Sequence record: NC_019399.1
Origin: Escherichia phage vB_EcoM_ACG-C40
Reading direction: 5' to 3' (one strand)
Length of the DNA: 64,000 nucleotides
Position 1 is the stretch's first letter, and each line of letters begins with the position of its first letter. The notes under the pieces were generated by a model, which made no database searches, was not told the origin of the DNA, and saw nothing but the letters and a program-made list of their open reading frames with translations. Of this stretch, positions 1-49,235 are shown in pieces. A program made the translations under genes and the position numbers.

Positions 1-2178
1 TTAGGCCGCAAGGGCCTTCATAGTTTTAGCGATTTGAGAAACTTCATCATCACTTAAAGAGTTGCGATATCCGATGAAGTCGGAAACAATACGGAATTTC
101 TTGGTAAACTCAGCAACCATTTTATCACTGTTTTTTGAAGCATTATTTGATAATACATCAAAAAGATTAGTTACTGTCCAGATGTCATGACCGATGGTAT
201 CTTTTCCACCATTAAAATATACACCGCGCAATGAACTAACTATATTAGCGAGTCGTGTATATTCTTCAGAAACTTCATCTGTACTGAAGTACTTCATCAT
301 AAAATCTAGTTCAGGATACTTGATAATTTTATCAATATATCGTTGAGCTGAACTTGAATAACCTACGTACTTATCATAATCTACATCATCAAAAGCATCT
401 ACATATAAATCACGCAGAGTTTCAAAAATACATTGGCACTGACCGAGTTCTTTTACCTTTTTCTGCAAAAGCGGACGAATAACATAAAACTCATTAATGC
501 CAATAAGATTAGCCATACGAATCAAAATATTCATAGATGGATGACAAAGAGATGTAGTACCATCCATAGAGAAAATATCAGAACGATGCATATACGCTAC
601 ATACCCAGTAATTTCATCTGCTTCTGATGTGAGCGTAAATAATTCCTCTTTTTCCCAGCGCCCATCTTTAATTTCAAACTTAAATGCTGTAGCAGCTTTA
701 GGACGAGGAGCTTTACTTTTAACTACCTTTGGAATATAGCTTTTAACTAAAGCTTCGATTTCTGACAAATAATGAATGTTAACTTCATCACTTTCAAACA
801 TCGCCATAATATCAGGGAGTAAATCAATCTGCGATTCTACTTCTGGATTAATAAACAGAAGGCGTTCGTTGTGATGAATATTCAAAGTGTTATTAAATTC
901 ACTATCATCTAACGCATGTGCTAATCCACGGACAATATTAACACGATTTTTAATATTATCAATAACGATATTAATTTTTGTTGCATTAATACCAAACAGA
1001 CGATAACTTGATGCAACGGCTGAAGTTTCATGACTTTGCTTAATGCGCTTCAGTCGAGGGTCAAGATTTACTTCATACACAACTCCTGCATTGCATAACT
1101 TACTATCAGGTTCAAACATGCTTTGCATCTTCTTATATGACAGATTTTTAGTCGTAAATTTGACTGAATTACTAATCATATAATCTCGAGCAGAATACCC
1201 CATCTTCATCAATTCACGATATGTATGACGGGGAGATGTGGATTCTTTAAATCGTTTTACATCTTCATTAAATGCTTTCTCACTGAGTTCTTTAACTCGT
1301 TCAATAATATTTTTACGAGTACGATCATCCAGTGAAAGAGCCTCGCGAGATGGAGCAATATCAAGTGAACCCATTGGAAACTTAATGTAATTCACTTCAT
1401 TGCGAATGCTTAGCCAGTTACGGTCTCTAATAACACCATCGATAGGATAAACAATACCGCCATAGATAGCATATAATCCACCACGATCAGGCCAGTATCT
1501 TTCTGGATTTACACCGTAATAGTCATCAAAATCCGGAAAATAATCAATTTCGCGGTCAAGACCATTAATGATAGCCAAATCTTTGAACGGTCGCATGATA
1601 TAAGAAACTTCATAAGCAAAGTTTCTAAAGTCTTTTTCTTCAACTGGAACTACGATTTCAATACCAGTTTTATCATCTGGACCCATTTCTTTTACGAATG
1701 TAGGTTTAATCTGTGGACCATCACCATCCATGTAAGCTACATAACCACGAATTTCACCTTTATGATACGAAGTAATACTAAATGTATCAGTATAACTAAA
1801 CGGAGATTTAGAACCTAAACCAAATCCGCCAATAAAGTCATTAGATTCAGCTTTAGATGAACTGAAGTATGAATTATACAACCCAGGAGAATTATCATCA
1901 CCCTGAATATCAAAATCACTCATACCCGGACCAAAATCTCGACAAACAAATCGCGGATCTAATCGTCCTGGAACTTGTATGATAAATTTTTCAGGATTTC
2001 CATTAAGTGCATGGGCATCAATCATATTAGTAATTAATTCACGGACTACTGCACGAATCTTGTTTGTATACAAATCAGATGACAGAATTTTAAATACTTT
2101 AGGAGATGCTGTGATGCTAAATGCTTTTGATTTAGAACCATTGCCAAGAATTGTTTCTTTTTCAGTGGTGATAATCAT
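1..2178 (-). CDS. rIIA: rIIA membrane-associated protein (complete, 725 aa)
   Basis: ATG at 2178..2176, TAA at 3..1; N-terminal sequence and length match T4 rIIA as recalled. Confidence 0.93.
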
Positions 2179-4599: not shown

Positions 4600-4971
4600 T
4601 CACTTAAATTTAATGGCTTGAAGAAGACTAATAATTCTCAAGCGACTTCCTTCATCTTTAACTGTAAAAGAAAGAGGGTCACCAGATTTCATAGTGATAG
4701 TGCATTCAAAAGCAAAACCTTCGGGAACTTCTTCGAAGAAGTCAAATTCTTCATCATAAATTAGAACATTACTCTGAAAACTGTGAAGAATTTTTCCGTC
4801 ATTTCCAGATGCTGTACTAATCATTGTAACATTATTACCTTTCATATCTTCAACGATAAATTCGCTTGTAGATATTACAGCATTAATAGAACCATTCCTA
4901 TAAATAGCAGAAAATAGATATTTCTTTTCTTCACCTTCGCGAATGCGATATTTCTTACCGATTTTAAACAT
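4600..4971 (-). CDS. hypothetical protein (123 aa)
   Basis: ATG start, tightly packed in operon. Confidence 0.5.
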   Translation of the reverse strand: MFKIGKKYRIREGEEKKYLFSAIYRNGSINAVISTSEFIVEDMKGNNVTMISTASGNDGKILHSFQSNVLIYDEEFDFFEEVPEGFAFECTITMKSGDPLSFTVKDEGSRLRIISLLQAIKFK

Positions 4972-4973
4972 AA

Positions 4974-5156
4974 TTACCCTTTAAGTAAGTCGTAAAATCC
5001 GCCATTCACATGCTTAGGGGCAGAGACTAACCGAATAGCAATCCGATGACAATCAGGACATACATCAGTATCTCTTTCAGAAATTTTCTTGATTTTTTCG
5101 TATTCTTTTGCGCAGTCTTTTGATTGACATTTATAATCATAAAGCGGCATAATCAT
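4974..5156 (-). CDS. zinc-ribbon protein (two CxxC pairs)
   Basis: CQSKDC...CPDC motifs; ATGA overlap with upstream gene. Confidence 0.55.
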
Positions 5157-5566
5157 TCCTTAAAGTGAGCTTTCAACATCTGATACAAGGACCATGCCTG
5201 TTCATCATTTTCAATAGTAACTTTCATTACAGGGAATTTAGATTGATCAGTTATCGGTGCAGATTCTTCCTGCTCTTCAGCTGCCTGGTATGGATTTTCA
5301 ACTTCATTAAAGAATTCAGCTTCATTCGATGAAAGCCAAATAAAATCTTCATCCAAAATATCTTTACCAGAAGATAGTACTAAATTTCCAGCAAATGACA
5401 TAATTTTAATAGGACGCCCAAGAGCATCCACATCTAAAATTTTAAAAGGATGCATACCTAAACGGCGTGCATAGATTCCGTTATCAGTATGGTCTTTAAT
5501 AAAATTTTCTTGAGCTTGTTTATTTTTAAATTGATACCATTTATTAACTTCAAATTTAATAGCCAT
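5153..5566 (-). CDS. hypothetical protein (137 aa)
   Basis: ATG start; 1-nt overlap with upstream stop. Confidence 0.5.
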
Positions 5567-23760: not shown

Positions 23761-24603
23761 TTAATCAACTGCTATTGGATGAATAGCATTAAACTTATGA
23801 AATGCTTCTGATTTTTCTTTACGTGAAACGCACATGCGAAGAACCTTTAATGGCTCGTCTTCTTCACCCAACGATTTTCGTTTTTCAATATTAGAAGTTT
23901 TCCAACGAGCTTGCTCTGGAAACTCTCTATTGATTTGCTCAAGCGCTCTATTATGTTTAGAATTACTACGAATTGAACTGCACCCGCCAGGAGCTTGTGC
24001 TTTTCCAGATACAACCAGATATTTGAACAAGGCCAAATGCGGATAACCTTGATTAATTAAATTGAGAAATGCATACATATCTTCGCACAAATCAATTTTT
24101 CCATACCCAATTTGTTCTGTCGTAAGTTTTCCAAGGTCATACCATGTATTCGTGAATCCATATGAATTTTCACGATAATTACCCCAAGATGAAGTAATTT
24201 TAAAAATAGGTAGACGAGCATGGCCATGATAATACCCGCAATCCATGGCATCTTCGACGTATTGAATCAATTCATAGAACTGTTCACGAGTTAATTGATT
24301 AATTTTATCTACGCGCCGTTTATCGTCTCTCTTTCGTATTGAACTCATACGGATAGTAGTATCATCGTCAATCATCCAGATTCGTTGACCTGCATACATA
24401 TCAGTAATTGCTTTACGAGTACCGGCAATTCCATTAACATCATCAGGAATAGTTACAATTTTAGCTCTAGACCCATAGGCATCATAATAAGCTTTTTCTT
24501 CGTGTTCACGCACTACAATATGGGGTTCATAATCAGTCGGAAACATATCAAGGGCAGAAACTGCCCCGACACGCTGATAACTTGGAATTACGAATTGAAT
24601 CAT
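23761..24603 (-). CDS. putative HMC-DNA glucosyltransferase at the beta-gt locus (280 aa)
   Basis: DXD motif WMIDDDTT; unlike 351-aa T4 beta-gt; T2/T6 ba-gt-like by locus. Confidence 0.5.
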   Translation of the reverse strand: MIQFVIPSYQRVGAVSALDMFPTDYEPHIVVREHEEKAYYDAYGSRAKIVTIPDDVNGIAGTRKAITDMYAGQRIWMIDDDTTIRMSSIRKRDDKRRVDKINQLTREQFYELIQYVEDAMDCGYYHGHARLPIFKITSSWGNYRENSYGFTNTWYDLGKLTTEQIGYGKIDLCEDMYAFLNLINQGYPHLALFKYLVVSGKAQAPGGCSSIRSNSKHNRALEQINREFPEQARWKTSNIEKRKSLGEEDEPLKVLRMCVSRKEKSEAFHKFNAIHPIAVD

Positions 24604-25241
24604 TTAAGTGCCTTACATTTGTCAAAATGGTATCTTGTCATATTTGGCCCACGTCCTTTTAGTCCGCAATGCGGACATATTTTTTCTATCAAATTATGAG
24701 GTTTTCCTTTACGATTTTTAGACATCGTTTCTTTAATTATTTTAGCTTTTTCTACGCCAAAAATTTCTTCATAAGTTTTACCAGAATTTTCCTTGGCTCG
24801 ATTTATAATTCCATATGCCTGCTCATTTTTACCATACATTGGATTACCTTCGCCTTTCATTCTTTTAGAATGATCAGGACGCTTGATTCCACGAAAGGCA
24901 TTTCCGCACTTATATCTTTCTTCTGGAGATAGTTTTTTACCGTACATTCCATTTAATTTGCCTGGAAAACTTCCTCCCCATGCTTCATTCTTTAAATTAT
25001 ATGAATCCGGACAATTAGCAGCATCTAAACAAGTTAAAATAATTTCTTCAACCTGTCTAAACATTGGTCCTTCATATAATATTTCTTTATTAAAGGATTT
25101 TATTCCATATTTCTTTTTAGCATGTTGCCAAACTACACCCGAACCATCATAATTCGGGTTGTGACCATCATGACTTCCTATATACCACTTTTTAGTTTTA
25201 GGATGTTTATACTTATAAACATGTGGCACATTTACTTCCAT
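24600..25241 (-). CDS. GIY-YIG homing endonuclease (Seg-like, 213 aa)
   Basis: VYKYKHP...KWYIGSH GIY-YIG motif, NUMOD-like repeats, C-terminal CPHCG...C zinc finger. Confidence 0.75.
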   Translation of the reverse strand: MEVNVPHVYKYKHPKTKKWYIGSHDGHNPNYDGSGVVWQHAKKKYGIKSFNKEILYEGPMFRQVEEIILTCLDAANCPDSYNLKNEAWGGSFPGKLNGMYGKKLSPEERYKCGNAFRGIKRPDHSKRMKGEGNPMYGKNEQAYGIINRAKENSGKTYEEIFGVEKAKIIKETMSKNRKGKPHNLIEKICPHCGLKGRGPNMTRYHFDKCKALK

Positions 25242-25972
25242 TTTCCAGTATAATCCTTTTTAGCAATATGAGTCTCACCGGTGTTCCACCAATGGTCAAC
25301 TAAATAAAACTGATTTTCGTACACATGAAGACTTCCAACGTTCCATATAATAGAACCTGCTTTATATTGCCGCGATGGGTCGCCTGCATTCAAATCAGAT
25401 ACTAATTTATCTAGTACGTATTTTTGCCAAGCATAATCATTACGATAGCCTGCCCAGCAATCATTGCTTCTCATGCTAACAACCGCATTGACTTTCTTAT
25501 CACGAATCAGGTACTGTACTGTATTAGTACACATGAAATCTGACATACCATCTTTATTGTAGTCAAATTGCATGGATGGACGAGTATAAATCATGATACC
25601 ACGTCGAGAATCAGGATTTTGACCAAGTTCAGCTAAACACATATCATACTGGGCATAGTTATCTTCTGACCAAATAGCCCAACCATAATTCGAGTTAATT
25701 TCGCCTTTAGAAGATGCTACCTGCTGCCAAATCTTTGGTGTTTCACCTGGAATATCTTTAACAAACAAGCTCTTAGATTTATACCATTCAAGTTCGCGCT
25801 GAATGTATTCATCATTAAGAGCGCCAAAAATAAACGGTTCATCTGCTATAAATGATGCGCCAATAATTTCAATAGTTTTAACGCCAGTTTTATCAACTAC
25901 GAAATCTTTTTCTTTTAATGCAAGCCCCAAATGAAGACGGATTTCTTCAACTGTCATAGAGTCATTAATCAT
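25232..25972 (-). CDS. 42: dCMP hydroxymethylase gp42 (246 aa)
   Basis: Thymidylate-synthase-like fold; length and sequence match T4 gp42. Confidence 0.9.
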   Translation of the reverse strand: MINDSMTVEEIRLHLGLALKEKDFVVDKTGVKTIEIIGASFIADEPFIFGALNDEYIQRELEWYKSKSLFVKDIPGETPKIWQQVASSKGEINSNYGWAIWSEDNYAQYDMCLAELGQNPDSRRGIMIYTRPSMQFDYNKDGMSDFMCTNTVQYLIRDKKVNAVVSMRSNDCWAGYRNDYAWQKYVLDKLVSDLNAGDPSRQYKAGSIIWNVGSLHVYENQFYLVDHWWNTGETHIAKKDYTGKWK

Positions 25973-36830: not shown

Positions 36831-36848
36831 AAAGGGCCGAAGCCCTTT
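36831..36848 (-). terminator. intrinsic terminator downstream of alpha-gt
   Basis: Same 21-nt hairpin as at 32121; overlaps alpha-gt stop codon. Confidence 0.6.
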
Positions 36849-38049
36849 ATTTTGTAATAATGTCAAACTGTTCTTTAAAGCAGAAGCTTGAATCTTGATG
36901 CTGATACAAAAATTCATATGCTTTTTCTCGCTCACGGTCATAAAGAGCTCGGTCAGATGACAGTTCTTTAATACGTTCAAATGTTGATTCCATGTCATTT
37001 TCATCAAACCAAATGATACCGCTATCATGCGAGGTCAAAGGAGTATTATCAACACGGAATTTTAAATTTTCGCCAGTAGATTTCCAGAAAACAGGAATTG
37101 TACCGCAAGCACCTAATTCAAGATGAGTATATTCTAAAGAACGTTGTAGATATTTTTTATCCAACTTACTCAACTGATAACCAAAACCGGATTTACTCAT
37201 ACGTTCAAGCATTTCGCTATTTACATAACGGTCAAGAATTTGCGTTGGCAAATTAGGAGCAATTTTAATTTGGTCTACTTGATGAAGACGATAATACTCG
37301 TATGGAATTCCTTTTTCTTTAATAAGAATGAACGCTGGAGAACGTTCCAGACCTTCCATAATAGTACTTAGTCCTGCAGGTTTAAGATGTTTTTCATGAA
37401 AATCAAACATCTGATAAAAACCTTTCCATGTAGTCGTACGACCAATCCAACGGTTGATATTCATGTTAATTTCAGAAACATCTTTCCAGTAGGTTGACCG
37501 AACCTTCGCAATATCCATAGGAGGCTGAAAGTTATATACTGTCGGTGCTTCTTCAATATCATCAAACAGAGAAACAGTTTCTGGATACCATTCTTTCATC
37601 AGAACTTTATTAAAATCACCATTATCAGAATGACTAAAAATAACATCAGCTCGACGAACAGTTTCTTCTAATCCCAAATTTCGACGCAAAGAAAGAGAAG
37701 AATGGTCATGTTGATAAACTACAACACGAATAGAAGGTTTAATATTATCTAAAAGTTTTTTATAGTTATTAATCGTGGCTTCTTGAACGGAAGTAGCAGG
37801 AACAGAATTAATAATTAGAATATCACAATCATTAATCAGTTTAAGTGCTTTATCGTATTCTTTAGCTAAAATAACTGGAATTGAAAATGATTTGTGGTCA
37901 TGAGAACTTGTACGAGTAAATGATTTATCTTTAGCATAAACCAAAGTTACTTCATGACCATTTTTAATAAACCAATCACGTTGCTCGAGTGAGAATTTTG
38001 TTACACCACAACCTTCAAGACCCCGAGCCAGAAAAATGCATACTTTCAT
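36847..38049 (-). CDS. a-gt: HMC-DNA alpha-glucosyltransferase (400 aa)
   Basis: N-terminus MKVCIFLARGLEGCGVTKFSLEQRDWF matches T4 alpha-gt as recalled. Confidence 0.88.
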   Translation of the reverse strand: MKVCIFLARGLEGCGVTKFSLEQRDWFIKNGHEVTLVYAKDKSFTRTSSHDHKSFSIPVILAKEYDKALKLINDCDILIINSVPATSVQEATINNYKKLLDNIKPSIRVVVYQHDHSSLSLRRNLGLEETVRRADVIFSHSDNGDFNKVLMKEWYPETVSLFDDIEEAPTVYNFQPPMDIAKVRSTYWKDVSEINMNINRWIGRTTTWKGFYQMFDFHEKHLKPAGLSTIMEGLERSPAFILIKEKGIPYEYYRLHQVDQIKIAPNLPTQILDRYVNSEMLERMSKSGFGYQLSKLDKKYLQRSLEYTHLELGACGTIPVFWKSTGENLKFRVDNTPLTSHDSGIIWFDENDMESTFERIKELSSDRALYDREREKAYEFLYQHQDSSFCFKEQFDIITK

Positions 38050-38073
38050 TTAATATCCTCTTTGTTTTGGTTT

Positions 38074-38098
38074 ATTTTACCAAAAATTTATAAAGCAA
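38074..38098 (-). promoter_or_regulatory. MotA-dependent middle promoter upstream of alpha-gt
   Basis: MotA box TTGCTTTA, 11-bp spacer, -10 TAAAAT. Confidence 0.55.
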
Positions 38099-38102
38099 TA
38101 TA

Positions 38103-38116
38103 GGAGCCGAAGCTCC
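38103..38116 (-). terminator. terminator-like UUCG hairpin
   Basis: GGAGC-UUCG-GCUCC directly upstream of the alpha-gt middle promoter. Confidence 0.5.
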
Positions 38117-38292
38117 TATCCACATAATACGCCATACAAAGGCTCATTAGAGCTTCTAAATTTTCTGCGCCTATATGTTATAGTTCCTTCTGCTTTAGCT
38201 TTATCGTAAGACTCTTTAAAGCGTCTCATCATTTCTACTTTAGAGGAACGAATTTTATTATAATCTATTTCAGAAGTCTGGGTGTTCATCTT

Positions 38293-38496
38293 TCATAACT
38301 GCCACCATTTTTTGACTTGATAAGAATCAACCCACACTTTCATATTAGGGTCTGCTCTTACAATAGGAGGATTAACTTCTTTAATTGAACTATCATGGTA
38401 TTCTTTTTCAGAAATTTTCACACAAAGATGACCATTCAAAGATTCAGTAAATCCTGCATTAATTTTAAGACGCTTGAATTTTACGTGTGTAAGCAT
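38293..38496 (-). CDS. hypothetical protein (67 aa)
   Basis: ATG 38496 after GAGGA; track start 38499 is TTG. Confidence 0.45.
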   Translation of the reverse strand: MLTHVKFKRLKINAGFTESLNGHLCVKISEKEYHDSSIKEVNPPIVRADPNMKVWVDSYQVKKWWQL

Positions 38497-41451: not shown

Positions 41452-41760
41452 TTAGTCTTCTATGATATCCCTATCATATCCAAGTGAAATGAGAGTTTCT
41501 TTGAAGTGTTTAATGTTCTTTTGTCTAGAATCATTAATGAAAATGACTGGATAACGAATGTTAAGAGATGTGAATCCAGCGCGTTTAGCAAGAGATACAA
41601 TCAGTGGACGATCATACTCAATCTTACCATTATTTGTAAGAACCTTATAGAAAGTAAAAGGAGCATTGAGCTCCTTTAGAAGTTTTGTAACTGATTGACA
41701 TCCAGGACAACGACCAACTTCATCTGGAATTCCATAGACTTCAATCTTATTTTGTTTCAC
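41452..41760 (-). CDS. nrdH: glutaredoxin-like protein NrdH (102 aa)
   Basis: CPGC redox motif; GTG start after AAGGA. Confidence 0.8.
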   Translation of the reverse strand: MKQNKIEVYGIPDEVGRCPGCQSVTKLLKELNAPFTFYKVLTNNGKIEYDRPLIVSLAKRAGFTSLNIRYPVIFINDSRQKNIKHFKETLISLGYDRDIIED

Positions 41761-41762
41761 AA

Positions 41763-41975
41763 CTATTCCTTACTAAGAGCAGCATTCAGTTTGTTAGTAA
41801 TTTTATCCAGACGCTCATTGAACTCACTAGAAGATAAGCCCTTTTCTGGAGAAATTAAACTAATCACGAAAAATATAGCAATAAAAGGAATAAGGAAAAT
41901 AGCTCCAACTGCCATAAACAGAAAGAATGTTACAGTTGTAAGAAAATCAGCTAAACCTTTACGAAATTTATACAT
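41763..41975 (-). CDS. small membrane protein (70 aa)
   Basis: ATG start; central hydrophobic helix. Confidence 0.5.
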   Translation of the reverse strand: MYKFRKGLADFLTTVTFFLFMAVGAIFLIPFIAIFFVISLISPEKGLSSSEFNERLDKITNKLNAALSKE

Positions 41976-42090
41976 ATTTTACCCTTAATTGATTAACCAA
42001 GCATTGATAAGCACTAAACTATACTGCGAATAAAATTCTGGACCAAAATGAAAAATCATATCATTTATAGTATCCATAATGTAATTCAAT

Positions 42091-42561
42091 TTAATCATGT
42101 TTCCACACCCCATCGGTATTTGACCAAAGCCGCTGATTATCTGATCCTCGCCACAGCTTTTTGGTCGGAAGATTTTTCTCATACTTCCCATCAATAATAA
42201 CATCAACATATTTAAGCATTTCTAGTTGTTTAATATCTTCAAACTTATATCCTGTCCACAACCAAATGCTTTTATTGGGATAAAGATTTTTTACTGTTTG
42301 AACAATGCAATGAATAACATCTCGGTTATCAGGATAGAGAGGGTCTCCTCCAGTTATAGTTAATCCTTCTATATAATCATTATTCAAACATTCAATCAAT
42401 TGTTCTAGTGTTTCACCAGTGAATGGAATACCATTTCTAGCATTCCATGTTGATTTATTATAACACCCTTCACATTTATGCAAACAACCTGTAACGAAAA
42501 GAACTGTCCTGCATCCAGGACCATTAACAAAGCAGCACGGGTATATTCTGTCATAATTCAT
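42091..42561 (-). CDS. nrdG: anaerobic ribonucleotide reductase activase NrdG (156 aa)
   Basis: Radical-SAM cysteine motif CxxxCxxC; ATG 42561 (track start 42582 is TTG). Confidence 0.88.
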   Translation of the reverse strand: MNYDRIYPCCFVNGPGCRTVLFVTGCLHKCEGCYNKSTWNARNGIPFTGETLEQLIECLNNDYIEGLTITGGDPLYPDNRDVIHCIVQTVKNLYPNKSIWLWTGYKFEDIKQLEMLKYVDVIIDGKYEKNLPTKKLWRGSDNQRLWSNTDGVWKHD

Positions 42562-43388
42562 AATAATATCCAATTTTTCCAAGCTTCATCAGTAGAATTA
42601 CAGCGTTTTAGTATAAGATGTCTAGAAACTTTTATGGCATTTGAGCACTTTTTAATTGAATCATATTTAATACCGTCAACTGAAACGGTTTTGCTAGTTG
42701 GAGAAATTTTTCCATACATTGGATTTTTTGAACCAACTTGAAGTCCTTTTAAAGCTTTTGAAAGCTTTTGTCTAGATTCCAATGACATGGGAGAATTCTT
42801 TTTACCTTCAATAATTCGCTTGCGATGAAGTTCGCGTTCTTCTTCACTCAAAGAATTGTAATATTTTTTAACACCGTTTGATATAGATAATTTATCTTTC
42901 TCAGACCGCTCTCCAGCTAATTTACTTCTAACATCTTTTCGCTTCATAGCTATGCTTACGGCTTTATTTAAATTTGCTTGATGCTCTGGCGTACGTTTAT
43001 ATTTCTTTAAAGCACGTGAAATAGCTATTTTAGTTTCTTCTGTTCTCTTTTTACCTTTATTTGCTAAACTATTTTTGCGGCGATGTTCAAGTGTCTGTTC
43101 ATAGGCAGTTCCACCTTTTCCACCAGGTTTAATATTATATGTATTTTCTTTTAGACAATACTCTTCGGTTACAAGTTCAGCTTCTTTATCATACATCTGT
43201 TTTTCATTATCAAAAACATGTAAAATTTCTTTATTAAAATTTTTTCTACCATATTTTAATAAAGCGGCACGAATCAATGTTCCTGACCCCATATAACCGT
43301 CATTTATGTTATCGGTGCTATGCGCACCGATATATTCCTTTGAATTAATTATATTTGTTATTTTATAAATTATATAATACCTATGCAT
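42558..43388 (-). CDS. GIY-YIG homing endonuclease (276 aa) between nrdG and nrdD
   Basis: YIIYKITNIINSKEYIGAHS GIY-YIG motif plus NUMOD-like repeats; ATGA overlap with nrdG. Confidence 0.75.
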   Translation of the reverse strand: MHRYYIIYKITNIINSKEYIGAHSTDNINDGYMGSGTLIRAALLKYGRKNFNKEILHVFDNEKQMYDKEAELVTEEYCLKENTYNIKPGGKGGTAYEQTLEHRRKNSLANKGKKRTEETKIAISRALKKYKRTPEHQANLNKAVSIAMKRKDVRSKLAGERSEKDKLSISNGVKKYYNSLSEEERELHRKRIIEGKKNSPMSLESRQKLSKALKGLQVGSKNPMYGKISPTSKTVSVDGIKYDSIKKCSNAIKVSRHLILKRCNSTDEAWKNWILL

Positions 43389-45198
43389 GTTTTACTCGTT
43401 TTACCATTTCTTTCATTTTACCTAAATTCCATGGAACAACGCTAGGAGTTCCAAGATATCCGCATGTTCTTCTTATTGTATTCATCTTTTTAGGATCAGT
43501 TTCTCCACAAATAGAACAAATAAATCCGTTTTCAGTAGGAGTCATTTCATGGGTGCTTCCGCATGTAAAACATTTATCTACTGGCATATTAACACCAAAA
43601 TAATCTAAATGTTGTGCAGCATAATCCCATACGGCCTCAAGACCCTTTAAGTTATTTTTCATATCAGGAAGTTCAACATAAGAAATGTGACCACCTGTCG
43701 CAATGAAATGATATGGTGCTTCTCGAGAAATCTTTTCAAACGGAGTAATATTTTCTTCTACTGAAACATGGAAACTGTTAGTGTACCAGCCTTTATCAGT
43801 AACATCTTTTACACTTCCATATTTTTCAGTATCAAGTTTACAGAAGCGATAACAAAGGTTTTCAGCGGGAGTAGAATACAAGCTAAAAGCAAAACCGGTT
43901 CTTTCAGTCCACTGTTTAAGACGAGCATTCATTTTAGTTAAAATTTCCTGTCCAATATCACGACCGACAAGAATATTCAATTCGTGAATACCAATGTATC
44001 CTAGGGACACTGAACTTCTACCGTTTTTAAATAACTCAATTATATCGTCATCAGGTTTAAGACGAACCCCGAATGCACCTTCTTGGTAAAGAATAGGAGC
44101 AACAGTAGCTTTAACTCCTTTTAAGGAACTAATTCTACACATCAAAGCTTCAAAACACAAATCCATACGTTCATTGAATAATTCAACAAATTTCTGTTCG
44201 TTAAATTGTGTTCCAATATAAGAATCTAATGCAATACGAGGAAGATTCAGTGTTACAACACCAAGATTATTACGTCCATCAAGAATTTCATTACCAGTCG
44301 AATCTTTCCATACGCTCAAGAAACTACGGCAACCCATTGGAGAAACAGGAACAGATGAACCAGTGATAGCTTTATTGTTCTTAGCTGAAATAATATCAGG
44401 ATACATCCTTTTGCTTGCACACTCTAGAGCAAGCTGCTTAATATCATAGTTCGGATCGTCTTTGTAAAGATTAACACCTTCTTCAACGAACATAACAAGC
44501 TTAGGGAAAATAGGAGTTATCCCATCACGACCGAGACCTTTAATACGATTTTTCAGAATTGCTTTCTGAATCATTCGTTCAGTCCAGTCAGTTCCTGTAC
44601 CAAATGTAATTGTTACAAAAGGCGTTTGTCCGTTTGAACTAAAGAGAGTATTTACTTCATATTCATAAGCTTGGAATGCATCGTATACATCTTTTTCTGT
44701 TTTAGATTGAGCATAATTCAACGCATCAGCGATTTGCCATTTTTCTGCATCCTCAATATGTTTTGCATAGGTGCGTTTAACATAAGGAGAAAGTACTTTA
44801 TCTACATTCGCAAAAGTCGTTCCGCCGTATTGGTGGGAAGCAACTTGCGCAGTAATTTGTGCCATAATTGCAGTAGCAACACCGATTGATTTAGGAGTTT
44901 CAATCTGTGCATTACCGAGCTTAAATCCGTTCTCAAGCATTCCTTTTAAATCTACTAAACAACAATTAGTAAATGGAAGAGCAGGGGAATAATCAATATC
45001 GTGGAAATGGATAATTCCGCTTTCATGCGCTTTCATAATAAAAGACGGGACCATATTTTTGGCAATGTGTTTAGACACAATACCAGCCATAAGGTCCCGT
45101 TGAGTTGGAAAAACACGAGAATCTTTATTAGCATTCTCGTTTAAAAGGTCTTTATTAGTTTTATGAATCAATCCTTCAATTTCTTTTTCAATTGTCAT
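43381..45198 (-). CDS. nrdD: anaerobic ribonucleoside-triphosphate reductase NrdD (605 aa, uninterrupted)
   Basis: Glycyl-radical C-terminus RRTCGYLG; single ORF, no intron. Confidence 0.93.
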   Translation of the reverse strand: MTIEKEIEGLIHKTNKDLLNENANKDSRVFPTQRDLMAGIVSKHIAKNMVPSFIMKAHESGIIHFHDIDYSPALPFTNCCLVDLKGMLENGFKLGNAQIETPKSIGVATAIMAQITAQVASHQYGGTTFANVDKVLSPYVKRTYAKHIEDAEKWQIADALNYAQSKTEKDVYDAFQAYEYEVNTLFSSNGQTPFVTITFGTGTDWTERMIQKAILKNRIKGLGRDGITPIFPKLVMFVEEGVNLYKDDPNYDIKQLALECASKRMYPDIISAKNNKAITGSSVPVSPMGCRSFLSVWKDSTGNEILDGRNNLGVVTLNLPRIALDSYIGTQFNEQKFVELFNERMDLCFEALMCRISSLKGVKATVAPILYQEGAFGVRLKPDDDIIELFKNGRSSVSLGYIGIHELNILVGRDIGQEILTKMNARLKQWTERTGFAFSLYSTPAENLCYRFCKLDTEKYGSVKDVTDKGWYTNSFHVSVEENITPFEKISREAPYHFIATGGHISYVELPDMKNNLKGLEAVWDYAAQHLDYFGVNMPVDKCFTCGSTHEMTPTENGFICSICGETDPKKMNTIRRTCGYLGTPSVVPWNLGKMKEMVKRVKHA

Positions 45199-45668
45199 TT
45201 TAAACTCTTTCTAAGCTGCTTCTTAAATGAAGCTATTAATTGTGTTTTGGTGTCAGATTCATTATATTCAAATCCTCTTTGAAGCATCTCGGCCATCATT
45301 TCCTCTTTTCCTAAACGAGAAAATTCCTTTGATTTATCTCCAACGAAGTTAGGGTGAATATTATTTTGGGTGTAATCGGATTTTAAATAAGTAAGTAAAT
45401 TTTCTAACCATTCAAGATAATCAACACCTTGTCCCTTTAAGCCAGAACGATTAAATTTGTGCTTCATTTGACCTTCTGCGGCATTGCATAGATTACAAAG
45501 CAATCCACGTACCTTTCCTGCTTTTGGTCCATTTAATTCATGGTCATGATCGAGGTGATTAGCTTGAACATCAGGATTTAGTTCTCGTTGGCAAATTAAG
45601 CATTTACCATTTTGTGCATCATAAAATTTCTGTTTTTCTTCTTTATATAATTTGCCAGTCAATAACAT
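45195..45668 (-). CDS. 49: endonuclease VII gp49 (157 aa)
   Basis: Zinc and HNH-like motifs CLICQ...HLDHDHE...CNLCN; length matches T4. Confidence 0.9.
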   Translation of the reverse strand: MLLTGKLYKEEKQKFYDAQNGKCLICQRELNPDVQANHLDHDHELNGPKAGKVRGLLCNLCNAAEGQMKHKFNRSGLKGQGVDYLEWLENLLTYLKSDYTQNNIHPNFVGDKSKEFSRLGKEEMMAEMLQRGFEYNESDTKTQLIASFKKQLRKSLK

Positions 45669-45673
45669 AATAA

Positions 45674-45698
45674 ACCCTTACCTTAAATAGATAAGGGT
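45674..45698 (-). terminator. hairpin upstream of gene 49 (terminator or translation-control structure)
   Basis: 7-bp stem ACCCTTA/TAAGGGT with 11-nt loop, then U-rich tract. Confidence 0.35.
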
Positions 45699-45705
45699 AT
45701 TTATT
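45698..45705 (-). promoter_or_regulatory. possible late promoter upstream of gene 49
   Basis: AATAAATA, one mismatch to TATAAATA, next to a hairpin. Confidence 0.3.
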
Positions 45706-45709
45706 ATTT

Positions 45710-46195
45710 TCAAGTATTGTAAAACATTTGATTCAATCGCTTATATTGCCGAATCTTTTGGTCAGAAAAAGAAATTTGAGTTTCAAGCCATTCAATGTAC
45801 TCTGCGGCAGCTTGCATCAGGTTACCTTCATAGCCATCGTTATTTTCTTGTGCAGCTAATTTAGCTAATGCGTATGAAATACGTTCACCTTGAAAATCGG
45901 CTTTAGGTATTTGAACATCTTGACTAGTTCGCTCTACAACTTCTTCAATTTCGCCATTTTCGACTGATTCAGTATTCCACAAACACCAATACGTAATTGG
46001 CTTATCGTAGATGTTAATAATCTTTCCGTCGGAAAGTTCAATTTCAATAATTCCAGTATCAGGTTCTATATCATCTTCACATTCTTTTGCAAGTTCACGA
46101 ACTTTAAAGACAGTACCTGCACTAAGTTCCGGCCAGTAATTACACAGCCCTATATCAGCACGATTAATTCTAAACCACTTATCTACTGTAATCAT
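45710..46195 (-). CDS. pin: Pin-like protease inhibitor (161 aa)
   Basis: Position upstream of gene 49 and size; ATG 46195 after GGAG (track start is TTG). Confidence 0.5.
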   Translation of the reverse strand: MITVDKWFRINRADIGLCNYWPELSAGTVFKVRELAKECEDDIEPDTGIIEIELSDGKIINIYDKPITYWCLWNTESVENGEIEEVVERTSQDVQIPKADFQGERISYALAKLAAQENNDGYEGNLMQAAAEYIEWLETQISFSDQKIRQYKRLNQMFYNT

Positions 46196-46235
46196 GTCCC
46201 ATCTCCATATCAATTAAGTCATTTATTGTAGGTTC

Positions 46236-46265
46236 ATTATATACTGTTTCTTCATCAGTGTAAAC
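46236..46265 (-). promoter_or_regulatory. T4-type early promoter upstream of pin-like gene
   Basis: GTTTAC, 18 bp, TATAAT. Confidence 0.55.
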
Positions 46266-46285
46266 CGGTTCTTTCGGCTCTGGCT

Positions 46286-46489
46286 CTACAGTTTCCCATC
46301 TAACCGCCCACCAGGGTTTAACCCCCGAAGCTTATTAAGTTCTTCATAATCAATCCAGGATTCTAGTCCTGATGGCAAATCAGATTCAATTTCCCAAAGA
46401 AGTTCTTCAATTTTATGAAGACGATCTAATTCTTCAGCTGGAATAGTAACCATTGATGGAGTTCTTGATACACTAATATCGTAAATCAT
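46286..46489 (-). CDS. hypothetical protein (67 aa)
   Basis: Track start 46528 is GTG; ATG 46489 after GGAG. Confidence 0.45.
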   Translation of the reverse strand: MIYDISVSRTPSMVTIPAEELDRLHKIEELLWEIESDLPSGLESWIDYEELNKLRGLNPGGRLDGKL

Positions 46490-46491
46490 AT

Positions 46492-46707
46492 TTACTCCAG
46501 TTTGACCATACAATCGCCGTATTTCCACTTAGAAATAGACTTTTCGCCATTAGAATAATAAACTTCAAGTTTAGCACGGTTATTTTTAATTTGAATAACC
46601 TTGGCTGTCATCAAAGTTCCATACCCATAGTAAACTGCAACTTCATCACCTACATATACCGCGCTTCCGCGGTAGTCATGGATATAATCAGTTCCTTCGA
46701 GCATCAT
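46492..46707 (-). CDS. hypothetical protein (71 aa)
   Basis: ATGA overlap with nrdC. Confidence 0.5.
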   Translation of the reverse strand: MMLEGTDYIHDYRGSAVYVGDEVAVYYGYGTLMTAKVIQIKNNRAKLEVYYSNGEKSISKWKYGDCMVKLE

Positions 46708-47512: not shown

Positions 47513-47739
47513 TTCAATACCTCAATAGCATTACGTAAACCATTTGCTTTTGCATTAAGAGCTTTTAACAATTTGGTGTGTTCTGCAATTTGGGCTTCAA
47601 CTTCAATCAAACGGGCATTGAGATATTCACGTTCTTCACTCAGATTATCAACCTTTTCTACTTTAGGCTCTTTTACAACTGTCTTATATGTATTAGGGTT
47701 CTTCAGTTTAATTAGAATGCGTGAGCTGTTCGCGAGCAG
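47509..47739 (-). pseudogene. start-less 76-codon ORF, probable frameshifted continuation of 47708..47923
   Basis: Open frame LLANSSRILIKLKNPNTYKTVVKEPKVEK... with no in-frame ATG/GTG/TTG; TGA overlaps next ATG. Confidence 0.35.
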
Positions 47740-47923
47740 TCATTTGCGTAATATATCCAGCTTTATCAAAATGTCGCAGCCATTCACTGCTATTCATATA
47801 CTTAAAGTGAATGGAACTATTAACTCTATCAGGGTCTAAATTATTTTCGCACAAAAATGTCATAGCATCACGAGTATAGCTGGCATTACGAACCATATCT
47901 TCAATTTGAGAACGAGTTTTCAT
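47708..47923 (-). CDS. hypothetical protein (71 aa), possibly N-terminal part of a frameshifted gene
   Basis: ATG start; followed in +1 frame by the start-less ORF. Confidence 0.45.
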   Translation of the reverse strand: MKTRSQIEDMVRNASYTRDAMTFLCENNLDPDRVNSSIHFKYMNSSEWLRHFDKAGYITQMTAREQLTHSN

Positions 47924-47931
47924 GGTGTTCC

Positions 47932-48819
47932 TTAAGATTTAAGTAAATCAACAATTTTAATTAACTTTTCACGCTCAGATTTAGCTTTACTACTCAATCC
48001 AGATAGTCTAAAAATTTCATCATCATATTGTTGAATAGAAATATTCAGCTCTTCAATCTGTTTATTAAAATAATCAATTTGTTCAGAATGTTTTTCGTTA
48101 CTACGAACTGGTACAGGTTTTGTAGGCAATGTAGTTGAACTGGATTCATTCGGGCGATAAATTAAAATACAACTTGAACCAATAGGGCATTTTGCACCAG
48201 ATGAATATTCTAATGTTCCAGCTTCTTTTAAAACTTCAAAAGCTAAACAGAGATGATGCCCCATATTAACATAATCTGTAGAGTGAGCTCTGATGTAATA
48301 ATCATCGCCACGAATACTAAATTTAAAGCATTTAAGGTCTTCTGTATTATTGGTCTTAAAAATCATTTGTTTATCTAGACCTTTAGCTAATCGAGCACCT
48401 AATGCTAATAATCGTCGTTGATTTTCCCACAAATCTGCGATCATTTGGTCAAATGATAATTTCGGCATTAGTCGACCATAAAGGTCATATCCTTTATTAT
48501 AATTGCGAAGGATTTCACTCGCATTAATACGAGACAACGCTCCAATTTTATTAAGGGCTTTCATGATGCGATTAGATAAAAGCATTCCAGACCCGTTTGT
48601 TCGTTGTAAATGTTTTTCTAATCCAAATCCAATATCAACTTTAAACTTATCTAAAATTTCGGCGTGAACATCTCTGTCAATAACATTCAAATCCAAAGTT
48701 GGGTTAAATCTATGAAAAAATTTATCTGGCTCTCCACGACGAAGTACAGTCCATTCATTTAATTTTTTATTAACTAAAGATTTAATTACTGCATTGACAT
48801 TATTAATTACTACTGACAT
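47932..48819 (-). CDS. hypothetical protein (295 aa)
   Basis: ATG 48819 (track start 48834 is TTG). Confidence 0.5.
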   Translation of the reverse strand: MSVVINNVNAVIKSLVNKKLNEWTVLRRGEPDKFFHRFNPTLDLNVIDRDVHAEILDKFKVDIGFGLEKHLQRTNGSGMLLSNRIMKALNKIGALSRINASEILRNYNKGYDLYGRLMPKLSFDQMIADLWENQRRLLALGARLAKGLDKQMIFKTNNTEDLKCFKFSIRGDDYYIRAHSTDYVNMGHHLCLAFEVLKEAGTLEYSSGAKCPIGSSCILIYRPNESSSTTLPTKPVPVRSNEKHSEQIDYFNKQIEELNISIQQYDDEIFRLSGLSSKAKSEREKLIKIVDLLKS

Positions 48820-48830
48820 ATTTTTCTCAC

Positions 48831-49235
48831 TCAATTTTCAATTTTACTAAATACACAGAATATGATGGAAAAGACTATATAAGCACCGCATACAGATTGA
48901 ACTAATACCATTCCAAAGAACCAAACAATATTATCAAACAATGTCTGTTTTACGTCGAAAGGACGTAAACTTACAGTAATATTATCGCCTTTTTCTATTG
49001 ATGAATACATCTCTGGTGAAATATATTCACTAAATCTATAACCGTCTTTGAGTTCATATACAGCAATAAATGATAAACTAGACCCCTTTCCTTGAGTTCC
49101 TGTAAGGGTATTAACTACAGTAACATCATAATCTTTATAATGCATATAATCATTAATTGCGTAATAACCATATGCAACTACTACACATAAACAACATATC
49201 AATAAATTCAATCTTTTAATTATCAACTGTTTCAT
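48831..49235 (-). CDS. membrane protein (134 aa)
   Basis: Two hydrophobic helices; middle-type promoter upstream. Confidence 0.5.
   Translation of the reverse strand: MKQLIIKRLNLLICCLCVVVAYGYYAINDYMHYKDYDVTVVNTLTGTQGKGSSLSFIAVYELKDGYRFSEYISPEMYSSIEKGDNITVSLRPFDVKQTLFDNIVWFFGMVLVQSVCGAYIVFSIIFCVFSKIEN

Follow-up and report, generated by a model that had tools for sequence, protein, structure and literature searches.

The nrdD/nrdG junction of phage vB_EcoM_ACG-C40 very probably carries segH

We analyzed a 64,000-nucleotide (nt) stretch of DNA from Escherichia phage vB_EcoM_ACG-C40 (NC_019399.1; the whole stretch is called the window below) and focused on the junction between nrdD and nrdG, which encode the large subunit and the activase of the anaerobic ribonucleotide reductase. 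On the minus strand, gene 49, nrdD, an open reading frame (ORF) of 276 amino acids (aa) and nrdG follow one another in that order (Table 1). The 276-aa ORF is very probably segH, a free-standing gene for a homing endonuclease of the GIY-YIG type that occupies the junction as an alternative to the HNH gene mobC. Starting from its own ATG and ending at its own stop, with nrdD likewise ending at a stop of its own, segH is packed stop-on-start between its neighbors: the nrdD stop and the segH start overlap within CATGCATAG, and the segH stop and the nrdG start overlap within TTATGA.

The encoded protein is 98% identical to SegH of phage T6 over all 276 aa, and a protein identical to it is already in the database (P0001). 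The same ORF is annotated "segH: SegH homing endonuclease" in PP01 and in the T6 record MH550421, and elsewhere plainly as "homing endonuclease"; two short GenBank records, AY262137 (T6) and AY262139 (LZ2), are titled nrdD-segH-nrdG and also annotate segH as a homing endonuclease. The core cassette is 98.8-99.9% identical in nucleotide sequence to these segH-annotated copies (AY262137, AY262139 and PP01), and the locus as a whole is 97-98% identical to that of Escherichia phages PP01, EC121, ECO4, T6, RB3/5/6/7/9/10 and many others. In T6, LZ2 and the U5-type T-even phages, SegH is encoded by the same gene in the same position (nrdD-segH-nrdG), with the same overlaps and the same length, and the segH copies of PP01, EC121 and RB3 share 99.8-99.9% of their nucleotides with the window copy. 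Besides T6, LZ2, RB3/5/6/7/9/10 and PP01, ~60 further deposited genomes have segH at this junction. Window SegH differs from T6 SegH by five substitutions (A42S, R104H, R115K, E118K and A158V), none of them at a catalytic position that is conserved among 36 aligned homologues. The genome around the gene has no identical counterpart among deposited phages, the closest being 96-97% identical over 24 kb.

Table 1. Features of the nrdD/nrdG region (positions in the window; SegH domains in residues)
Feature	Position	Strand	Basis or description
gene 49 (endonuclease VII)	45195..45668	minus	Pfam Endonuclease_7 and dimerisation domain; T4/T6 annotation
nrdD, anaerobic ribonucleotide reductase large subunit, 605 aa	43381..45198	minus	Pfam NRDD and Gly_radical
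Vacant group I intron insertion site (I-TevII homing-site region)	44660..44661	minus	BLAST breakpoints, junction alignments
Recoded nrdD 3' end, segH-linked	43381..43462	minus	begins in the glycyl-radical motif codons (RRTCGYLG)
Core cassette, 836 bp	42570..43405	minus	no BLAST homology to T4 (mobC there) or RB27 (empty site)
16-nt insertion GGTAAAACGAGTAAAA relative to the empty-site allele	43390..43405	minus	gapped alignment with RB27
10-mer CATGCATAGG	43380..43389	minus	segH start ATG CAT AGG (M-H-R)
segH, 276 aa	42558..43388	minus	between nrdD and nrdG
SegH domains	residues ~1-95; ~224-276		catalytic (~1-95); NUMOD3-type helical linker repeats; I-TevI-like DNA-binding (~224-276)
nrdG first 30 nt, segH-linked	42532..42561	minus	the same at every segH+ locus, KM16 among them; different in T4 and in RB27
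nrdG, anaerobic ribonucleotide reductase activase, 156 aa	42091..42561	minus	Pfam Fer4_12, E = 5e-48

SegH resembles I-TevI in sequence motifs and predicted fold

A first-pass annotation of the window, made from the letters alone, had called the 276-aa product a GIY-YIG endonuclease, and both family and fold evidence bear this out. The GIY-YIG motif pair is present as IIY at residues 6-8 and YIG at residues 19-21, aligned to Y6 and Y17-V18-G19 of I-TevI. BLASTP aligned SegH with T4 I-TevI over the N-terminal domain (residues 7-101, E = 0.002) and over the C-terminal DNA-binding domain (residues 224-276, E = 3e-4), pairing Y8 with Y6, Y19 with Y17, G21 with G19 and N85 with N90, and placing the catalytic Glu, E69, within one residue of I-TevI E75. 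Y8, Y19, G21, the DGYMGSG block, E69 and N85 are invariant across the 36 aligned homologues.

We then modeled the protein with AlphaFold2 from the homologue alignment, and the N-terminal domain (residues 1-90) received predicted local distance difference test (pLDDT) scores of 93-98. The top three Protein Data Bank (PDB) matches of a Foldseek search with this model were all the I-TevI catalytic domain (including 1MK0 and 1LN0), with a probability of 1.00, template modeling (TM) scores of 0.62-0.65 normalized to the target, root-mean-square deviations of 3.2-3.6 Å and E-values of 6e-3 to 3e-2; the fourth match, a weak one, was the I-TevI DNA-binding domain. A sequence search of the PDB with SegH returned nothing significant (best E-value 0.14), and the link to I-TevI was therefore made through pairwise BLASTP and the fold search.

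Among the family profiles, Pfam NUMOD3 matched window SegH above its cut-off, PF01541 gave no match, and I-TevI_DNA-bd scored 21.1 bits against a cut-off of 27. TIGR01453, "group I intron endonuclease", matched residues 7-274 (E = 3e-13; 50.2 against a cut-off of 56.05), and PHROG 314, "homing endonuclease", matched with E = 2e-60. A full-length homologue of 47% identity (E = 6e-62) passes the Pfam cut-offs for SegE_GIY-YIG, I-TevI_DNA-bd and NUMOD3 (PF19835, PF20987), so that the membership of SegH is backed through this relative; many of the 546 database homologues of SegH bear PF01541 or PF19835. Taken on alignments and a modeled fold, the assignment of the 276-aa protein to the GIY-YIG nuclease superfamily is right, with weak direct Pfam support for the catalytic domain.

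I-TevI, encoded by the td intron of T4 (1MK0/1LN0 for the catalytic domain, 1I3J for the DNA-binding domain), has the same three-part architecture and fold as SegH. However, the two share only ~29% identity, and I-TevI is intron-encoded, whereas SegH is free-standing. SegH is also without the zinc finger and the R27 segment of I-TevI, and has the Seg-typical DGYMGSG motif instead.

T4 holds a different endonuclease gene at the junction and an intron in nrdD

The RefSeq gene order of T4 is nrdG, mobC, nrdD (two exons joined, with I-TevII inside a 1033-nt intron) and gene 49. A BLAST comparison of the window with T4 breaks across the core cassette, where 836 bp of the window are unmatched and T4 has 635 bp of mobC, and again at 44660/44663, the place of the T4 intron. 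The product of mobC, a putative HNH homing endonuclease, scored 27.6 bits with Pfam HNH, above the cut-off of 21.4. By contrast with SegH it is HNH rather than GIY-YIG, is 210 aa long and is unrelated, the 24% identity being that of a forced alignment. The two genes are nonetheless alternative alleles of one junction, mobC also being co-oriented with the operon; the insertion point of mobC lies a few nt further on, after nrdG codon 7, as against nrdD codon 601 for segH. The activity of MobC is listed as "not determined" in a 2010 review.

Window nrdD is colinear by BLAST with the intronless nrdD of T6, RB27 and PP01, and an Rfam search of 41500..46500 found no intron even at E ≤ 1. Positive controls worked: Intron_gpI was found in T4 (105 bits) and in SP21535 and BYEP01. 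An ohsC_RNA match at 45667-45738 (E = 0.64) was set aside as chance because its 26.7 bits are far under the gathering score of 50. The first-pass annotation had named an alignment with T4 as the comparison that could refute it; that alignment shows gene content unlike that of T4, and the remaining statements of the annotation hold as well: in T4, the junction is taken by another type of endonuclease gene and nrdD is interrupted by a group I intron that encodes an endonuclease of its own, the window has one uninterrupted 605-codon nrdD, and mobile-element occupancy differs between the two phages.

All of this is known. In 2005, Sandegren, Nord & Sjöberg (Nucleic Acids Res 33:6203) published a paper whose title names the replacement of mobC by segH, and a review cites this paper for nrdD/nrdG targeting and for co-conversion tracts. 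The segH gene, the mobC replacement and the variable nrdD intron were all published ~20 years ago.

Occupancy and divergence of the cassette fit a recently spreading element

As a reference for occupancy we took the ~690 records whose identity to the locus is at least 90%. Among phage records, 71 contain the 836-bp cassette, 69 of them near full length and 48 at an identity of at least 99% (best 99.9%); mobC is present at full length in 32, and 25 have the T4-type nrdD intron. With segH in ~70, mobC in 32 and the intron in 25 of ~690, the junction is empty and nrdD uninterrupted in most relatives, and the cassette is absent from ~85% of relatives. RB27 represents the empty site, its nrdD stop overlapping the nrdG start (CAATGAATTATG). 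Judged by these counts, the outlier is T4 rather than the window phage. EC128 carries segH together with the T4-type intron, and the two sites are therefore filled independently.

We observed that the cassette is far more uniform than its surroundings. Between the window and PP01, SP21535 and BYEP01 it shows 0-1 mismatches per 836 bp, compared with 2-6 per 100 bp in the flanks. Synonymous divergence (dS) of segH is 0.006 from PP01 and 0.024 from T6, compared with 0.145-0.175 for nrdD. The same holds at greater distance: in KM16, a Salmonella phage of the genus Moonvirus (locus L014, 2487-3374), the cassette is 92% identical to that of the window and the flanks 78%, and Citrobacter phage Moon (locus L016), a relative of KM16, has an empty site and no segH. 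The segH cassette has evidently crossed into the genus Moonvirus. Against the KM16 allele, the ratio of nonsynonymous to synonymous divergence (dN/dS) of segH is 0.18 at a dS of 0.26, and the protein is therefore under purifying selection.

Phage PD112 shows the element in decay, with segH reduced to its two ends by a 577-bp internal deletion (the counterpart of window 42673-43249 is gone). Taken together, the observations are those expected of a homing endonuclease gene that invades, spreads, decays and passes between lineages, and they fit an element that is active and has been spreading recently.

Two of these genomes have further peculiarities. The locus of phage vB_vPM_PD112 (L005, 3093-3104 and 5032-5853) carries, in addition to the decayed segH, another, NUMOD3-containing homing endonuclease gene between nrdD and gene 49, and the nrdD 5' end beside that gene has 15-37% mismatches over window 44901-45100. 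In phage sutha (PV245934), the cassette is 4 bp longer and two endonuclease coding sequences (CDSs) are annotated, possibly a frameshifted copy.

Flanking tracts travel with segH

The sequences on either side of the cassette differ between genomes with and without segH. On the nrdG side, the NrdG N-terminus reads MNYDRIYPCCF (I6, C10) in segH+ phages, compared with MNYDR(F/I)YPCDF in segH-less phages, and the co-conversion tracts of PP01 and PD112 stop between nt 30 and 36 of the gene. On the nrdD side, the protein tail is TPSVVPWNLGKMKEMVKRVKHA in segH+ genomes, and NPNERGFNLGKNKEIMHRVKHQ in T4 and RB27 and nearly so in Moon. Ten of the last 22 NrdD residues are changed, directly after the glycyl-radical motif. 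This variant tail is present in all segH+ genomes, KM16 included, and absent from segH-less Moon.

Divergence is concentrated at the very end of the gene. When the nrdD 3' end is compared with T4 and RB27, 95 nt contain 21 mismatches, whereas the density deeper in the gene is 3-4 per 100. Comparison with RB27 gives a dS of 1.7 and a nonsynonymous divergence (dN) of 0.37 in the final 30 codons, and values of 0.14 and 0.0015 in the remainder of nrdD. We therefore read the tail as foreign sequence carried by the element: the variant stretch of ~27 codons looks like a hitch-hiker native to neither Tequatrovirus nor Moonvirus. Moonvirus as its donor is ruled out by Moon, which is segH-less and has the common tail. 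The T4 nrdG gene is itself unusual, its first ~370 nt (in the region 4876-5560 of locus L001) being 18-37% diverged from all other phages compared; this stretch has the look of foreign sequence that accompanies mobC, much as the variant nrdD tail accompanies segH.

More distant SegH relatives stand in other surroundings. In unrelated contigs of up to 175 kb, the gene that immediately follows a 705-aa nrdD encodes a full-length relative of 47-48% identity; in these metagenomic contigs (L010-L013), nrdD has an ATP-cone and nrdG is six genes further on. This gene order suggests an association of the SegH lineage with the 3' end of nrdD and not with nrdG. Contigs L010 and L011 also have a second SegE-type GIY-YIG gene, upstream of nrdD.

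segH may have captured its start codon from nrdD

The codons that begin segH lie in the 10-mer CATGCATAGG, which one base out of frame is also the end of nrdD (CAT GCA TAG). The 10-mer is unique in the 64-kb window and occurs once each in the T4 and RB27 loci, where it belongs to the native nrdD tail and encodes (I)M599-H600-R601. Immediately 5' of it, the window has a 16-nt insertion that shifts the nrdD frame, so that the C-terminus reads ...VKRVKHA* compared with MHRVKHQ, with the length kept at 605 aa. Distant SegH relatives start with MFYTIY, without MHR.

The simplest account, which we consider plausible, is that segH entered behind codon 601 of nrdD and adopted a host ATG as its start, and that the 16-nt insert would then have restored a stop and a C-terminus of the same length. 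The 10-mer could also be part of the predicted SegH recognition site, which would agree with the reported cutting of its own genome by SegH. T4 MobC likewise borrows host start codons: it begins MNYDRIY, a copy of the NrdG N-terminus that matches the nrdG start in 19 of 21 nt, and a fresh nrdG start follows the mobC stop. By analogy, mobC would have captured its start from the nrdG side, in a mirror image of the capture proposed for segH.

Tentatively, and with the balance of our judgment against it, we propose that the captured M599-H600-R601 start, the 16-nt insert and the diverged replacement of ~27 nrdD codons form one composite unit, which may mask or modulate the SegH target. If so, each homing event would rewrite the C-terminus of an essential anaerobic enzyme, and the SegH-like genes after nrdD in the ~175-kb contigs would mark an old endonuclease lineage that has specialized on the part of the nrdD 3' end that codes for the glycyl radical.

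We also considered a palindrome at 43310-43332, a perfect 9-bp stem with a 5-nt loop in the segH codons for YIGAHSTD. It is probably incidental because it shrinks to a codon-driven stem of 5 bp in distant homologues.

The nrdD intron site is vacant

The second mobile element of this region in T4, the nrdD (sunY) group I intron with I-TevII, is absent from the window. The 1033-nt T4 intron and the variant introns of SP21535 and BYEP01 are all inserted exactly at the equivalent of 44660/44661, 1.3 kb from the nrdD/nrdG junction, and the intronless allele of the window is identical over ±40 nt to those of T6, RB27, PP01 and PD112. The variant introns represent a second version of the element. In SP21535 (locus L006, 4162-5208) the intron is 66% identical to the T4 intron and has a 256-aa ORF for an I-TevII-like GIY-YIG protein; BYEP01 (locus L007, 4162-4508) has an ORF-less form of ~345 nt. 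Both match Rfam Intron_gpI, and both phages also carry segH.

Around the insertion site, within ~25 nt of it, 7 differences separate the T4 exons from the window, most of them silent, and SP21535 and BYEP01 have their own cluster of exon changes near it. Clusters that differ by intron are the expected outcome of exon-flank co-conversion during intron homing. Among the T4 relatives compared, the intronless nrdD is evidently the commonest state, and it is independent of segH.

Mechanism and alternative explanations

In the scheme that we favor, SegH would be translated from a message that spans nrdD, segH and nrdG. During mixed infection, the enzyme would make a site-specific double-strand break near the junction in the co-infecting phage, and repair of the break by T4-type recombination from the segH+ genome would copy segH along with ~80 nt from the end of nrdD and ~30 nt from the beginning of nrdG. 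The SegH proteins of related phages are reportedly site-specific endonucleases that act near their own gene, and are said to cut segH+ and segH- DNA alike and to home in mixed infections.

Several observations weigh against this reading. The Pfam SegE_GIY-YIG score of window SegH is 18.6 bits, below the cut-off of 25. The counterpart of I-TevI R27 falls in a 10-residue alignment gap, no Arg is invariant in the family, and R40 is a Gln in KM16. There is no T4 late promoter (TATAAATA) in 41-47 kb and, upstream of segH, no middle promoter that combines a MotA box with a -10 at the right distance; sigma-70-like matches number 10, fewer than the 18.7 expected from shuffling. Nor did we find a hairpin that would sequester the ribosome-binding site, the fold of 43290-43440 being not significant (z = -1.8). 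Since there is neither a late nor a middle promoter, we take segH to be a cassette without a promoter of its own that is transcribed along with nrdD and nrdG, which leaves the timing of its expression to inference. The same promoter-less pattern is described for several T4 seg and mob genes in a review.

The want of an own promoter and of a canonical catalytic Arg would also suit a dead or dying passenger, kept intact only through the overlapping stops and starts of the operon and neither cutting nor moving. Decay does occur at the site, as seen in the 577-bp deletion of PD112 and in the 4-bp length difference and two homing endonuclease CDSs of sutha. We nevertheless consider a dead passenger very improbable: segH is under purifying selection relative to the KM16 allele, the catalytic Tyr, Glu and Asn positions are invariant, a near-identical cassette within flanks that have diverged by 2-6% (Tequatrovirus) or 22% (Moonvirus) requires recent transfer, and SegH of related phages is reported to cut DNA and to home.

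Slightly less probable still is that the cassette persists chiefly through a benefit to the phage, gained either by excluding the markers of competitors or through some advantage of the variant NrdD tail or NrdG N-terminus. Every segH+ genome does have the alternative NrdD tail and NrdG I6/C10, and marker exclusion by seg genes is, according to a review, established for T4 x T2. However, the tail, at a dS of ~1.7, looks like hitch-hiking foreign sequence and not like adaptive change within a lineage, and the ~85% of relatives without the cassette do well. Such a benefit would moreover be an addition to the homing explanation more than an alternative to it.

Finally, an unrecognized intron or intein at the nrdD 3' end that harbors the endonuclease gene, which might be suggested by the overlap of the ORF with the nrdD end and by TIGR01453 being the best curated-family match, can be rejected almost outright, as the Rfam search with its working controls found no intron, nrdD stops at its normal 605 aa, segH has its own ATG and stop, and the local RNA fold is not significant. 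Free-standing segH, moving by homing, remains the reading that we prefer.

Gene calls and other differences from T4 in the window

Gene 49 is the upstream neighbor of nrdD, and its stop overlaps the nrdD start. Window NrdD matched Pfam NRDD over the entire profile (1-562 of 562, E = 1e-171) and also matched Gly_radical. For nrdG, the ORF list gives a TTG start at 42582 (ORF 42091..42582); we place the true start at the ATG at 42561 because the resulting length of 471 nt equals that in the T4 and T6 annotation. Among deposited records, those of the RB3 group (KM606994-KM606999) name segH "segD", and in AP018814 (T6) the feature names do not line up with the sequence. In annotations, we recommend segH as the gene name in place of segD, and 42561 as the start of nrdG.

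Elsewhere in the window, a-gt (400 aa) is followed directly by a-gt.2-like small ORFs (36847-38300), and the HNH gene mobB, which lies between them in T4, is apparently absent; this appears to be another difference from T4 in homing-endonuclease occupancy. Apart from segH, a single ORF of the window, of 219 aa at 24603-25259 (minus strand), matches the profile of SegH homologues (E = 7e-13), with a weak NUMOD3 match; it probably encodes a further GIY-YIG protein of the seg type, possibly a segA-like one to judge from its position. At ~47650-47930 and 47932-48834, ~2.7 kb are missing relative to T4, comprising most of nrdC.3 through nrdC.5; T6 and PP01 retain nrdC.3 and nrdC.4. A 300-aa ORF that adjoins this gap had no Pfam match.

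Discussion

The locus is genuine but unremarkable: both the gene and its arrangement have been described before, and dozens of deposited genomes share them. Its junction anatomy, with a captured M-H-R start, a 16-nt frame-restoring insert and a recoded NrdD tail, is a small point. Overall, the region offers a clean textbook illustration of the life cycle of a homing endonuclease within a small span of DNA: close relatives of the phage provide examples of an unoccupied junction, of its invasion by either of two different genes (GIY-YIG segH and HNH mobC), of decay, of transfer between genera and of an intron site that is filled independently.

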